From the IMG/VR virus record IMGVR_UViG_2713896799_000023: DNA of 64,000 nucleotides; one strand, 5' to 3'. Each line of letters starts with the position of its first letter. Positions within the stretch are counted from its first letter, which is position 1. Of the stretch, positions 54,001 to 60,000 are shown piece by piece. Source of the DNA: a virus. Its lineage: Duplodnaviria > Heunggongvirae > Uroviricota > Caudoviricetes. A program made the position numbers.

Positions 54001-57000
54001 TGAAAGCTCATTTGCGCAGCATGCCAGAAGAAGGAACTGTTCCCCTGATCTACCCGAGCCATTTGAGTATGAGTAGCACTGTCTGGCCTGTGGAAGGTTT
54101 GAAGAAACCCAACGCAATCATGCGCAACGACGAGACAGAAAAGTGGCTTTACCCGAACGGTTTTTATTGTGTGGTGCGTCGTTTCTCGTCGAAGGAGGAA
54201 AAGCGCCGAGTGGTAGCAAGCGTCGTTGATCCTGCTACCTTCAGTGAGTATTCAGTGTTGGGATTTGAAAATCACATGAACGTGTTTCATGAGAACAAAC
54301 ATGGGTTACCCGAGGCGCTGGCCCGTGGCTTGGCCGTGTTCCTGAACACTACCGCAGTGGATAAGTATTTCCGTCGCTTCAACGGGCATACACAGGTCAA
54401 TGCAACCGACCTCAAGATGATTAAGTACCCAAGCCGTGACACTCTGATAGAGCTTGGCAAGTGGGCTATGCAACAAGAAACTCTCACGCAAGAACATATT
54501 GACGCTAAGCTAGGAGCTCTGACTGCATGAACAACCAAAATGATTATATTGAGGCCGCTCAGCAAATTATAGCATCCTTAGGCCTGCCCAGAGCGCAGCA
54601 GAATGAGCGTTCTGCTTTGTGTTTGCTGGCACTCCTGAACCTCACACCGGGAAAAGCATGGGCCGACGCGGAAAATCCGCTTGTGGGCATTACACCAATC
54701 ATGAATTGGGTTCGGGAGCACTACGGCAAGGTCTACGCACCCAATACTCGTGAGACATTCCGCCGCCAGTCTATGCATCAGTTCTGCGCTGCTGGAGTAG
54801 CCCTCTACAATCCGGACAAGCCCGATCGCCCAGTGAACAGCCCGAAGGCTGTTTATCAGATCGAACCTGCTGCTCTGTCCATGCTACGCACTTTCGGCAG
54901 CCCGGCATGGCACGATAGCCTTGCAACCTATTTAGCCGAGCGTGAAACGCTGGTTACCCGCTATGCTAAGGAGCGCGAACAGAATCGTATCCCTGTTGAA
55001 ATTGCTGCGGGCCAGCAAATAACCCTCAGTCCCGGCGAGCACAGCGAACTTATCCGTGCCATAATAGAGGACTTCGCCCCACGTTTTGCTCCGGGTAGCG
55101 TGCTGGTCTATGCTGGCGACACTGGCGAAAAGTGGGGCTACTTCGACGCTCCACTGCTGGCCGGGCTAGGTGTTGATGTGGATTCACACGGTAAAATGCC
55201 AGATGTGGTGCTACATTTTACTGCGAAAAACTGGCTGCTACTGGTTGAGTCTGTCACCAGTCATGGACCGGTTGATGGGAAGCGGCATGCTGAGCTTGCC
55301 AGGCTGTTTGCCGGATCAACAGCCGGACTTGTCTATGTGACCGCTTTTCCAAATCGCTCCATCATGGGGCGATATCTTGGTGAAATCGCATGGGAAACAG
55401 AGGTATGGGTGGCTGATGCACCTTCTCATCTTATTCACTTCAACGGAGTGCGATTTCTTGGCCCCTACTCTACTGAATGAGAACAGGACCAGATAAATAG
55501 CCCGGCCCATGCGCCGGGTTTTTCTTTGCATATCCCCTCCTGTTATCTGCCCCCTTAAAAAATAAATCACTTTAAAAATCAGTTAAGTAATAATTTCTCG
55601 CCCTTAAAAAGCACCAACGGTATTTACATGAAAATCACCGCAAGTTATATTTATTTCAAGCCAGAAACATCGCGCCCTTACACAGGGCTACATAAATCAG
55701 TCGTACGGCGCGACTTAACCCGCCGCAAAATGCTCTTTAACAATCTGGAGCTTTACAGCGTCAATGACCTGTTTAGACCCCTACACGTAAACGTGCTGTA
55801 TCATCGGGTGCGATCCGGTCGATGAGAGAGTATCCCCGCGCGAGAGCGAGAACGGCGTGAGAACGGGCAACACTGGCAGGAAGTTGGCGCTGACCAATAC
55901 AGGGAATGTTTTGGGGTGCAGGCGGCACCGCCAAAGCGTTTCTGAGAAAGAACGGTATTGACTGCGTGTGATGTCGGGGCTATATTTGGCGAACACCTCA
56001 TAAAACGGGTGTCGGGATTGCTACCCCGCTGACAATCGAGGCGATACAGACGCGCCAGCGTCTTTTTTTGTATCGACATACACGCACATCTTATCAATGG
56101 TGGGCTGTATGGGGCCGACTTCGGTCGGGCTGGTTCCCTTGATTGCCAGTTGTAGCAACCCTGTACAGTCCACCGCCAGCGAGCTTGCTACCTCCAGCGG
56201 TGGTTATCAATCACCAATCAAGGAGGCTGCCATTATGGCTACTATCCCAGTCCTTTCTCAACCTGAAATCACCATTTCCAATGGTCGCGCTGTTACTACG
56301 TCCTTTGCCGTTGCCGAATATTTTTGCAAGCGACACGATAACGTATTGCGCGCCATTGCAAATATTGAATGCTCAGAGAAATTTAACGCCCTCAATTTTG
56401 AGGACGTTACCTACACCGACGCCAAAGGCGAACAACGCCCAATGTACCAAATCACCAAAAACGGCTTCGTTTTTCTGGTGATGGGCTTCACCGGCAAAAA
56501 AGCAGCTGCATTCAAGGAAGCCTACATTGCTGAATTCGATCGCATGGAAAAACAACTATGGGAACAGAAACAACTGGCCCTGTCTTCTCCTGCGATGAAT
56601 ATCAATTTCCCTTTGTCGTGGTTTTCAGAGCATCACCCCTACGCCACGATGAACTATGTTGATCGCAAGGTTATCAGCCTTGATGCTTCCGTGCTCTTCG
56701 ATATGCCAAGCCCAACTATGCGCATCCTCAATGAGCTACACAGCAAAGGCTATAACGTTGACGCCGCTGTCGCCGAATTTAACGCCTTCAAGCATCTGAC
56801 GGAAGAAATGCGCCGCACGCTACAGGATATTTCAAGACTGTCAGATCGAAATTCCCGAAAAGGCTTCTCGTTAAGTCTTTAAAGAACAGATCGTTTGACA
56901 ATGCTGCATTAACGGGGATATATTCTGCCTCATGGTGCTCAAAACACCTTAGCAAGTAGCGGTTACCGCGCCCGACAGACATGCGGTTTTTTTGTGTCCA

Positions 57001-60000
57001 GTCTTCTTGGTTTATGACCGGGCGTGCGGCTAATACAATACCAGCAATGGGAATATGCCCGCCGACTACTTGCGGTTTTGAGCGCCCGGTCACCCTCTCA
57101 AAAGGGGTAAATCAAAATATCAAGTAGGACGCAAAGCATGAAAACCATCTCCGTGGAGTCCCTCTCCATAATTTCATTTAGTAATATACCTGTGGTGACT
57201 ACAGAGCTTCTTGCCAGCTTATATGGCACAGAACCAGATTACATCCGAAAAAATTTCAATCGGAATTCTGGACGATTTGTTATCGGTAAGCACTACTTTT
57301 TACTTGAGAATGAGGAGTTGCGGGAATTTAAGCACAGCATGTCTTTAAGACCTTCTGTGAAAATCGCCCGTAACGTTCGCTCCCTCATCCTCTGGACAGA
57401 ACGCGGCGCAGCCCGTCACGCAAAAATGCTCGAAACCGATCGGGCGTGGGAAGTGTTCGAAAAACTGGAAGACTGCTATTTCAGTCAAAAAATCCCAGAA
57501 CAACTTCAGCTTCCAGAATCAACGCTATCTATCAACTACCCTCTCTCGTGGTTCTCAGATAACCATCCCTACGCCACGATGAACTATGTTGATCGCAAGG
57601 TTATCAGCCTTGATGCTTCCGTGCTCTTCGATATGCCAAGCCCAACTATGCGCATCCTCAATGAGCTACACAGCAAAGGCTATAACGTTGACGCCGCTGT
57701 CGCCGAATTTAACGCCTTCAAGCATCTGACGGAAGAAATGCGCCGTAAATTGCTGGATATTTCCCGTACATCAGAAAAGTCTTCCCGCTTTGGTTTCAAC
57801 GTAAATCTTTAATTAACCCCATCCCCGACCACATATCGGGGATTAAATTAAATATCTGGATTAATTAACCGGAGGATTTGTCATGCTCAAACCTCACTAC
57901 GGAACCGCATTAGTTTCTCGCGAGGACGTTAAACCCGGCACAGCAATTCTTTACAACGGGCGTTATTACATGGCGTCAGCGAACGTTAATAATGCACTTT
58001 ACGCACATTCACTGATTGAAAAAATTCGCATTATCTCAGATGCAATAGAAGTTTACCTGAACAATAAAGGCCAACCGTTAATCTCACCAGCCTGAAGGGA
58101 AATATCATGCTCAATCAAAAAATAAATATCAATGTAAAAAGCGTCGTAACTCCAGCAGGAACGATAATGGGAGAAGTTTTTATGGATGATAAAATCATCG
58201 CCTATTTTGTCGTCCTGTCTGATGAGGCTATTTCTGTTATTGATACGGAAGGCAATGTTATGTTTATCGCGGAACATCCAGAAGATATCGCATTACAGGC
58301 CGCTGCATATTTCTTCGCTAAGGAGCAGGAGGAAGAATGTAACTGCCCTGTATGTCAGCTTTCCCGACAAATTAATTTAATGCATTAACCGGAATCAGGA
58401 GTTCCGCCATGAACGCATACCTCACCTGCGACCGCATAGAGGAGCGTCGCTGGATTAATCAGCAAATTCAGGATGAAAAGGATAAATGGATTGATGATCG
58501 GGCGCAGGAGCTTATCAGCATGTTCCCCGATAAACCATTGCTTATGAGCAGCCTTTTTTTACCCAAAGAAGCCCAACTAGCACTCACTGGCGAAAAAGCT
58601 GAAGAGGCGTACAACGATTATATCTCAGCGATCGCCTATGCTCGGGCGGAAGAAGAATGGGAGAGAAAATTCTCCCCCTGTCCTTTCTGATTTTCAGGAC
58701 CAAAAAATGTTCGATATCGTTGAATTTGTTAAGCAGCAGGAGCGCTTTTTCTGCGAGGCATTAACTGAACCGACGCTGACATGGGCGAAGGAAAGTCAGT
58801 TTGCAATTCAGCAATTCCAGAAAAATGCCTTTCTGGCTGACACAGCAAGGGCAAATCTGCCCAGCGCACAGAACGCTATCATCAATGTTGCCGCCATCGG
58901 CATAACCCTGAACCCGGCCAGCAAGCTGGCGTATCTGGTCCCACGAAAAAAGGCTGTATGCCTGGATATCAGTTATATGGGGCTTCTGCATCTGGCACAG
59001 GTCACAGGAGCCATTCAGTGGGGGCAATGCAAACTTGTTTACGAGAAGGACATTTACGAGTCCAACGGTATTGACTGCGCCCCCACGCACAAATACAACC
59101 CCTTCGTAGACAGGGGCGCACGCATTGGCGGTTATTGTGTCGTAAAAACATCCGAAGGCGACTATCTGACCGAAGAGATGAGCAACAGGGAAATCGAGGT
59201 CATCAGGGCGTGCAGCAAAGCCGGAAATAACGGAGGAAGTAGCCCGTGGGATAGTTTCCCCGATGAAATGGCCAGAAAAGCCATTGTTAAGCGCGCCAGC
59301 AAATACTGGCCCCGTCGCGATCGCCTGGATACAGCTATCGACTACCTGAACACTCAGGGCGGTGAAGGTATCATCCTGAATGCTGATCACATCCCTGAGC
59401 GTGACGTCACTCCCGCATCAGATGAGATTATCAATGAGATCACTCAGGCAATCACCGAAATTAACAAGACATGGGATGACCTGCTTCCCTTATGTTCCAA
59501 AACATTCCGTCGCACGATTGCATCACATGAATATCTCAGTCAGGAAGAAGCTGTCAAAACGCTTGATTTTGTCAAAAAGAAAGCTGCCAGAAACAAGGCC
59601 ACGGCGGAAGCGAAAATTCACGCCACCACGGAAAATAACAGCGAGGCCGTGTCATGACACCAGAAATTATTCTCCAGCGAACTGGCGTGGATATTACCAG
59701 CCTCGACCAGGGCGATGATGGATGGCACAAGCTGAGACTCGGTGTTATCACTGCTTCAGAAGTTCACAATGTGATAGCAAAGCCACGTTCCGGCAGCAAA
59801 TGGCCTGATACAAAAATGTCATACTTCCACACCCTGCTGGCTGAAGTTTGTACTGGCGTGGCACCGGAAGTTAACGCTAAGTCGCTCGCATGGGGAAAGC
59901 AATACGAAGATGATGCCCGTGCCCTCTTCGAATTTATCGCGGATGTTACCGTCTCGGAAACGCCAATAATTTTTCGTGACGAAAGCATGCGCACCGCCTG

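Follow-up and report, generated by a model that had tools for sequence, protein, structure and literature searches.

Two adjacent antirepressor-type genes of a Stx2a prophage share a probably gene-converted C-terminal domain that borders a naturally deleted 930-bp interval

Why do two neighbouring phage genes with unrelated N-terminal halves end in the same stretch of DNA, and what are the consequences for the locus that carries them? This question is raised by IMG/VR record IMGVR_UViG_2713896799_000023, a Caudoviricetes sequence of 64,000 nucleotides (nt; the whole stretch is referred to as the window), in which a Rha-type gene (gene 1, 56235..56882, plus strand) is followed by an ORF6N-type gene (gene 2, 57138..57812, plus strand). 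Base-by-base comparison at an offset of 930 revealed a perfect direct repeat (179/179, a single unbroken run) at 56637-56815 and 57567-57745, both on the plus strand; a first-pass annotation of this DNA had given the length and the first copy correctly and had placed the second copy one base off, at 57568-57746. The perfect run is enclosed in a longer paralogous direct repeat of 288 nt (56600-56887 and 57530-57817, plus strand, 86% identity), which was the only pair of long direct repeats found in the repeat search of the window besides a collagen-like array and one short pair. To either side of the perfect run, still within this domain, identity drops to 28/37 positions (5' flank) and 39/67 positions (3' flank; together 67/104, 64%), and the chance of a run of 179 matches is about 1e-34 at flank identity and about 4e-18 even at 80% identity. 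Our answer, which we hold to be likely, is that the locus comprises two adjacent and separately regulated antirepressor-type cassettes, linked by a gene conversion tract and subject to repeated deletion of 930 bp.

Both gene calls were borne out by Pfam. Gene 1 encodes a Rha N-domain (amino acids (aa) 21-106; PF09669, Phage_pRha, 111.6 bits against a gathering threshold of 29.9, profile positions 1-91 of 91) followed by an Ant-like C-domain (aa ~118-215), with a Shine-Dalgarno sequence, AAGGAGG, 8 nt ahead of its ATG, and gene 2 encodes an ORF6N N-domain (aa 10-97; PF10543, 69.7 bits against a gathering threshold of 27.8, profile positions 2-86 of 86) followed by an Ant-like C-domain, the assignments being based on Pfam and PHROG. 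As had been noted at first pass, the two N-domains lack pairwise similarity (BLASTP E=12); given that Rha, ORF6N and AntA N-domains all match the same regions of the heterogeneous families phrog_373 and phrog_63, a distant kinship among the three may nevertheless be conceivable. The presence of one and the same C-terminal domain on both genes was confirmed, and its earlier size estimate of ~60 residues proved too small: the homologous region spans ~96 aa (288 nt) from an INF/YPLSWF motif to the C-terminus, and the perfect tract covers only its central 60 residues. The tails differ, gene 1 ending in RRTLQDISRLSDRNSRKGFSLSL (tail T1) and gene 2 in RRKLLDISRTSEKSSRFGFNVNL (tail T2), and T1 resembles not gene 2 but a third paralogue of the C-domain, annotated antB1 in phage P13374 (NC_018846, 4009-4647), which has an AntA N-domain (PF08346) and tail T1 and whose equivalent position would be ~65436-66074, just past the window end. 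In several public records, the ORF6N gene is wrongly labelled 'antitermination'.

Is the two-gene arrangement reproducible? The locus is 100% identical to the Stx2a phages P13374, phiON-2011 and TL-2011c and to a prophage in many complete Escherichia coli genomes, for example O104:H4 2011C-3493; phages of the P13374/TL-2011c type belong to the genus Oslovirus and have been termed 'Eru1' (PMC8044961). Among 5,426 complete genomes, both genes were found in one contiguous match in 52 E. coli genomes, and 19 phage records carry them as well. Since some assemblies (C227-11 and the 2009EL strains) have one gene only, the second copy or its perfect identity might be ascribed to mis-assembly of a repeat, an explanation to which we give virtually no credence, because the two-gene form is identical in the 52 complete genomes, which come from many laboratories and platforms, and because the 19 phage records include P13374 and TL-2011c, phages named after their source strains. 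Furthermore, one genome series from the CDC contains both forms (two-gene 2011C-3493, single-gene 2009EL-2050 and 2009EL-2071), and FDAARGOS_401, a Georgian stool isolate, yielded in a separate assembly the same single-gene sequence as 2009EL-2071. The worry voiced in the first-pass annotation, that the repeat might be an assembly artefact, was thus dispelled by the occurrence of both copies in these genomes and phage records.

If the repeat is real, how did its core become perfect? Both copies were aligned from five diverged two-gene phages. The perfect tract of the window recurs in P13771, phi191 and EC3734. Ss-VASD has a copy 2 equal to that of the window, and its copy 1 keeps the gene-1-specific flanks and tail T1 and shows 34 differences from copy 2 within 56642-56765; in strain E2863, AntA takes the place of ORF6N as the N-domain of gene 2, and the C-domain copies are 80% identical. 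These diverged copies imply that the tandem arrangement is older than the perfect tract. The two copies of GER2 have four substitutions in common relative to the window (56732, 56747, 56759 and 56765) and differ from each other at only three sites, a pattern that indicates concerted evolution through recurrent exchange. Abrupt boundaries, unconverted relatives and the shared derived substitutions of GER2 are together the signature of a conversion tract, and they indicate that the perfect identity reflects gene conversion, not conservation, between two C-domains that are old paralogues, in keeping with the initial attribution of the identity to recombination. Because the copy-2 sequence is the conserved one (in Ss-VASD and E2863), the direction was probably from copy 2 (57567-57745, the likely donor) to copy 1 (56637-56815), and the most likely and simplest history is that 124-179 bp of copy 1, with a minimal replaced span of 56642-56765, were replaced by copy 2 in the P13374/TL-2011c lineage.

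A different origin of the identity would be that one antirepressor gene was recently duplicated in tandem and one of the resulting N-domains was then replaced, with the identical tract as a leftover of the duplication. The copies are indeed direct, in register and 930 bp apart, and N-domain swapping is real at this slot, as gene 2 of E2863 with its AntA domain attests. However, a recent duplication would leave the whole domain identical, whereas identity is no more than 64% in the tract flanks, and genes 1 and 2 have different tails (T1 and T2); moreover, the copies of Ss-VASD and E2863 are ~80% identical with no perfect tract, and tail T1 is like that of antB1 rather than that of gene 2. On these grounds, we regard such a duplication as very improbable and favour conversion between older paralogues.

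What does a perfect tract of this kind do to the locus? The first-pass annotation had proposed it as a substrate for deletion of the ~930-bp interval, and exactly this deletion is present in nature. The interval (56816..57745, any register within the tract being equivalent) is missing from strains C227-11, 10153, 2009EL-2071 and FDAARGOS_401, and it contains tail T1, a promoter-like site, an sRNA-Xcc1 and the ORF6N N-domain, so that the 930-bp unit is a whole cassette (promoter-like site, leader small RNA (sRNA) and N-domain), not a mere gene fragment. For O104:H4 C227-11, an isolate of the 2011 outbreak, the complete genome agrees at 100% over 13,071 bp with an in-silico 930-bp deletion of the window, with a junction that can be placed anywhere within the tract, and strain 10153 from Japan is 100% identical to the same product over 3,541 bp. 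The Georgian 2009 O104:H4 strains 2009EL-2071 and FDAARGOS_401 have 1 mismatch in 2,171 bp relative to an in-silico deletion of P13771, a Georgian two-gene phage, and 59 differing sites relative to the window-derived deletion product. Since they match the P13771-derived and not the window-derived product, at least two independent deletions, in two two-gene backgrounds, are implied. Across the complete genomes, the contiguous chimeric junction was found in 87 and the tandem in 52, and 7 of the 87 are 100% identical to the predicted product. In phages VT2phi_272, PA2, PA8, ArgO145 and others, the locus is exactly 930 bp shorter, and the one gene present before kil runs from the Rha N-domain through the 5' part of the gene 1 C-domain and the tract into tail T2; this structure is the in-register recombinant of the two copies, and in VT2phi_272 it is an exact chimera.

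The greater frequency of the single-gene form (87 versus 52 genomes) and its presence in the diverged lineages of VT2phi_272 and PA2 (~95% identity) could also be read in the opposite direction, with the single-gene form as the ancestor, the two-gene form arising by insertion or spreading via recombination with two-gene phages, and the 'deletion variants' being unconverted ancestors. We think this unlikely. In-register recombination of the two copies would yield precisely the single-gene sequence; over 13 kb, C227-11 equals the other 2011 outbreak genomes but for the 930 bp, and most outbreak genomes are two-gene; for the Georgian single-gene strains, the match is to P13771, a two-gene relative of their own, and not to the window; and one deletion step between direct repeats is a simpler account than two insertions that would both have to be precise. 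For the older single-gene lineages (~95% identity), the sequences could represent either ancient deletions or ancestral forms. As for the recombinase responsible for the deletions, RecT and Exo are encoded a few hundred bases downstream of the locus, and these phage proteins or, equally plausibly, host RecA may have acted. The paralogue antB1 shares a 71-bp perfect match in the same orientation with 56703-56773, which makes larger deletions (~9 kb) that remove kil, gam, recT and exo conceivable.

Other rearrangements were seen around the same genes. In a variant from phi191 (1639-2317 of the sequence compared), a 4-bp difference in length splits the ORF6N gene into two coding sequences (CDSs); a 131-aa E. 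coli protein consists of an Ash-like leader fused directly to C-domain copy 2, with both N-domains deleted; and in E2863, which has the AntA N-domain in the second slot, no kil CDS is annotated after it.

Are the two genes regulated together or separately? On the plus strand ahead of gene 1, a promoter-like site (55958..55986, TTGACT-17-TATATT, consensus scan 10/12) lies just 5' of an isrK-family sRNA (55993..56068, Rfam RF01394, 61.8 bits against a gathering threshold of 50) that has its own terminator-like hairpin (56048-56063) and T-run, and the position of the site corresponds to PisrK of the Gifsy-1 locus (PMC4825925). A C4-type antisense RNA follows in the leader of the Rha gene (56093..56180, plus strand, Rfam RF01695, 77.4 against 45), ending 55 nt before the Rha ATG on the same strand. 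Overlapping it, a 46-codon leader frame from the ORF list (56097..56234, plus strand) runs in frame into Rha with no stop and scores as Ash-like in Pfam (Phage_ASH, 27.1 bits against a cut-off of 26); the RefSeq annotation starts the Rha gene at 56110, and in other E. coli chromosomes, stretches that are labelled 'ash family protein / Icd-like' match positions 56000-56254 of the window at 84-88%. This frame is a possible counterpart, by analogy, of Gifsy-1 orf45, and what has been described as an 'Ash domain' in some Rha proteins (PMC8951638) may be C4 leader sequence that is translated, or a leader peptide of the orf45 kind. Just past the stop codon of gene 1, there is a second promoter-like site (56895..56924, plus strand, TTGACA-18-TATATT, consensus scan 11/12), the best-scoring one of the region and the probable promoter of the second cassette, and the spacer 5' of the ORF6N ATG holds an sRNA-Xcc1-family RNA (57016..57099, plus strand, Rfam RF02221, 79.6 against 53). 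In APSE phages, too, an sRNA-Xcc1 has been reported 5' of an ORF6N gene (PMC7313666). Two annotated CDSs of this spacer, a minus-strand open reading frame (ORF) at 56788-57093 ('cupredoxin'/ORF28) and a 48-aa 'antB2 antirepressor' ORF at 56981-57127, were rejected as genes, as neither has a Pfam match and they overlap the promoter-like site and the sRNA-Xcc1; the annotated CDSs at 56788-57127 are probably not genes.

The loops of the leader RNAs are complementary to the ribosome-binding site (RBS) regions that follow them. Pairing was assessed by exact loop complementarity and covariation, and whole sRNA-target RNAduplex predictions were discarded for their unrealistically long duplexes. The C4 hairpin loop at 56137-56145, CCTTGATTG, is complementary over 9 nt to the Rha ribosome-binding region (56215-56223), and the C4 junction heptamer at 56152-56158 is complementary to 56185-56191. 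Five loci have five different C4 heptamers, each complementary to its own downstream site (GTAGCAA/TTGCTAC, GTCCTAA/TTAGGAC, GTGAGAA/TTCTCAC, GTTCGAA/TTCGAAC and ACGCCAA/TTGGCGT). Likewise, the Xcc1 loop at 57066-57072 has its complement at 57121-57127, 10 nt ahead of the ORF6N ATG, and the antB1 cassette of P13374, which has its own sRNA-Xcc1 in the leader (P13374 4689-4778), shows a different loop, CTTTGAAG, complementary to a different target, CTTCAAAG. Loop-to-RBS pairs covary for both RNA families, for Xcc1 across two cassette types. Every related cassette examined has one of the two leader types, namely isrK plus C4 (VT2phi_272, E2863, ArgO145 gp07 and the first gene of EH1904) or sRNA-Xcc1 (POCJ13 ant, the second gene of EH1904 and P13374 antB1). 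By analogy with P1 C4, these leader RNAs would block translation of the genes that follow them.

What, then, might the shared domain do? The Pfam scan showed no family covering the C-domain, and a Foldseek search on it was uninformative. Several other searches led to Ant of Salmonella phage SPC32H, an 86-aa antirepressor known from the Rep-Ant complex PDB 5D50 (Kim et al. 2016, as cited in PMC10194989 and PMC9986798): phmmer gave E=0.02, a 15-sequence C-domain profile against PDB gave E=1e-4 over chain residues 14-73 of 86, BLASTP gave E=2e-7, and the PHROG matches of the two were reciprocal. In both sequence and fold, the C-domain resembles the SPC32H-type small antirepressor (phrog_450; 5D50_E). 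The families of both proteins are already annotated as antirepressors (phrog_1760, phrog_995 and phrog_377). An exhaustive search of 1.84 billion proteins, used for the family size because a word-indexed homologue search returned mostly partial proteins, found the C-domain family to be small, with 23 representative clusters. Its partners are Rha, ORF6N, AntA, KilA-N, Bro-N and P22_AR_N, and it also occurs as a stand-alone protein of 99-129 aa, a distribution that would be expected of a mobile effector module. It could be argued instead that the proteins are DNA-binding transcription regulators, as the 'Rha' annotation has it, and that the C-domain is a mere oligomerisation helix rather than a repressor-binding effector. 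Sequence, profile and structure searches, however, all point to the SPC32H antirepressor, stand-alone versions of the domain exist, and the cassettes have the leader-RNA architecture of P1 c4-ant and Gifsy-1 isrK-anrP (PMC8201110 and PMC4825925); we therefore find the oligomerisation account doubtful, though with a real share of probability, and prefer an effector related to SPC32H Ant.

We propose the following scheme, for which the sequences themselves show the repeat and the paralogy of its copies, the signature of conversion, the deletion variants, matches to the RNA families and covariation of loops with ribosome-binding sites. In the early-left region of a Stx2a prophage of the P13374/TL-2011c (Oslovirus, 'Eru1') type, each cassette would consist of a sigma-70-like promoter, a leader RNA and a two-domain protein; the leader RNA (isrK plus C4 in the first cassette, sRNA-Xcc1 in the second) would act through a loop complementary to the ribosome-binding site of the next gene, and the protein would join a Rha or ORF6N DNA-binding-type N-domain to a ~96-aa C-domain homologous to SPC32H Ant. 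The C-domains, old paralogues that are ~80% identical in related phages, would have been made identical in their cores by conversion of 124 to 179 bp, likely from gene 2 to gene 1, and the tract would then have served as a substrate for homologous recombination, leading to repeated loss of 930 bp. The product is a chimera of Rha N-domain, C-domain and the gene 2 tail placed directly before kil, with sRNA-Xcc1 and the ORF6N N-domain lost, and the Ant-like domain would thereafter be under isrK/C4 control only.

Several points weigh against this scheme. Repressor binding by the C-domain, and with it the antirepressor role of both proteins, is predicted from homology, and the resident cI (52253-52966) is lambda-cI-like with an S24 self-cleavage domain (3bdn, E=5e-92), unlike SPC32H Rep. 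The promoter function of 55958-55986 and 56895-56924 is predicted from consensus matches. No LexA box (CTGT-N8-ACAG, at most 1 mismatch) was found in 55400-58200, the closest LexA-like site being at 53103 and another at 52117 near cro, so that control of the genes by the SOS response via LexA is unsupported. Parsimony underlies both the direction of conversion and, for the Georgian pair, the choice of deletion over re-acquisition through recombination with a phage of the two-gene kind. The C-domain could target the resident cI, the repressors of other prophages, or something else; cross-talk with other prophages has a precedent in the Gifsy phages (PMC7380047).

Why would such a locus matter? 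It is part of the early regulatory region in the Stx2a prophage carried by the O104:H4 and O103:H25 strains of the 2011 and 2006 outbreaks, respectively, and toxin output in these strains is set by the level of prophage induction. A pair routinely annotated as 'Rha regulator' and 'ORF6N' or 'antitermination' would be two antisense-RNA-gated antirepressor-type cassettes with one shared effector domain, and the 179-bp conversion tract appears to make the number of cassettes unstable. Two practical gains are a copy-number polymorphism that can be tested by PCR inside outbreak clones and a link from the shared domain to a structurally characterised antirepressor. The mechanisms themselves, domain shuffling, gene conversion and repeat-mediated deletion, are well-established textbook processes, and as a case of phage gene shuffling, the locus is clear but ordinary. 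Eru1 phages are without N, cII and cIII, and their uninduced virion release is about eight logs above that of 933W (PMC8044961); antirepressor cassette number offers a concrete, testable hypothesis on the control of induction in phages that do without these three genes. More speculatively, and with a low probability in our estimation, the three cassettes (Rha, ORF6N and AntA), each with its own specificity-matched antisense RNA and the same Ant-like effector, might form a multi-input induction switch, perhaps behind the extreme spontaneous induction of Eru1 phages, with recombination at the tract (from three cassettes to two) tuning Shiga-toxin output. If this were true, toxin output would vary among isolates of one outbreak clone, for example between C227-11 and 2011C-3493.

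The neighbourhood and the rest of the window were also annotated. The gene order is cro, a lambda-like cI, a BsuBI/PstI-type restriction-modification pair, Rha, ORF6N, kil, an ORF, a gam-like gene, recT and exo. The septation inhibitor gene kil (57883..58095, plus strand, phrog_294, E=3.5e-32) follows whichever antirepressor gene bears tail T2, and the adjacency is the same in single-gene phages. The type II restriction-modification pair (53061-55480) comprises a protein with an Eco57I-like methylase domain and a BsuBI/PstI-family endonuclease and lies between cI and the antirepressor cassettes, the position of rexAB in lambda. A 62-nt direct repeat of 77% identity (63037-63098 and 63786-63847, spacing 749 bp) in the region annotated as ead/Ea22-like genes may be another pair of paralogous coding segments, and the array at 27558-28598 is a degenerate repeat of 9-nt periodicity, CCN-rich on the plus strand, which we read as coding, on the minus strand, for collagen-like Gly-X-Y repeats that may belong to a tail-fibre gene. 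At 44574-44833 and 46242-46490, Rfam matches to AsxR (an anti-stx2 sRNA, plus strand) abutting STnc100 (minus strand) and to three tRNA genes on the minus strand make up the usual RNA cluster of the Stx-phage late region. At 817-933 on the minus strand, there is a match (120.9 bits) to the ALIL pseudoknot, an Rfam cis-regulatory family and the programmed-frameshift signal of IS3-family transposases, which suggests an insertion sequence near the window start.

How does the locus compare with known systems? In the papers found on this phage group, Rha domains are mentioned elsewhere, and the tandem, the shared domain and the deletion polymorphism are not described; a literature search on P13374 and antirepressor returned nothing. 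Among the closest known systems is isrK-orf45-anrP of Salmonella Gifsy-1 (Hershko-Shalev et al. 2016, PMC4825925), where isrK with its terminator, a leader ORF of ~45 codons and an antirepressor-like gene likewise lie in this order on one strand, and Gifsy-1 DNA gives an 89% match to part of the ORF6N N-domain here. Unlike in Gifsy-1, a C4-family RNA stands here between isrK and the gene and overlaps the leader frame, which itself continues in frame and without a stop into Rha, and there are two tandem cassettes with a common C-domain.

In immI of P1/P7, icd and ant are under the control of the C4 antisense RNA (Citron & Schuster 1990, cited through PMC8201110). This operon resembles our locus in having the C4-family RNA in the leader of the operon that it controls, on the same strand, with loops complementary to the downstream ribosome-binding region and with specificity sequences that covary. 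In contrast to P1, there is no separate icd gene here, only the 46-codon Ash-like frame fused to Rha, the second cassette has sRNA-Xcc1 instead of C4, and neither protein has a match to Pfam ANT/KilAC (PF03374), so that the combination of icd with an ANT/KilAC protein that characterises P1 immI is absent. P1 Ant itself is a member of the ANT/KilAC family (PF03374).

Compared with SPC32H Ant, the domain is here fused behind a DNA-binding-type N-domain and has an extra N-terminal extension of ~35 aa containing the INYPLSWF motif; the resident repressor is lambda-cI-like rather than Rep-like, and the LexA box of the SPC32H and Gifsy ant genes, a mark of SOS-controlled antirepressors of the Gifsy, Fels, SPC32H and 186 Tum type, was absent from the 55400-58200 interval searched. 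Finally, the pairing of one C-terminal module with many N-terminal DNA-binding modules is the kind of shuffling seen among KilA-N, Bro-N, ORF6N, Rha and AntA domains, which was reportedly set out by Iyer, Koonin & Aravind in 2002 under the title 'Extensive domain shuffling in transcription regulators of DNA viruses...'. What distinguishes the present locus from such known cases is that the shuffling is seen at the DNA level in one phage, with a datable conversion tract, and that its deletion products segregate within outbreak clones.

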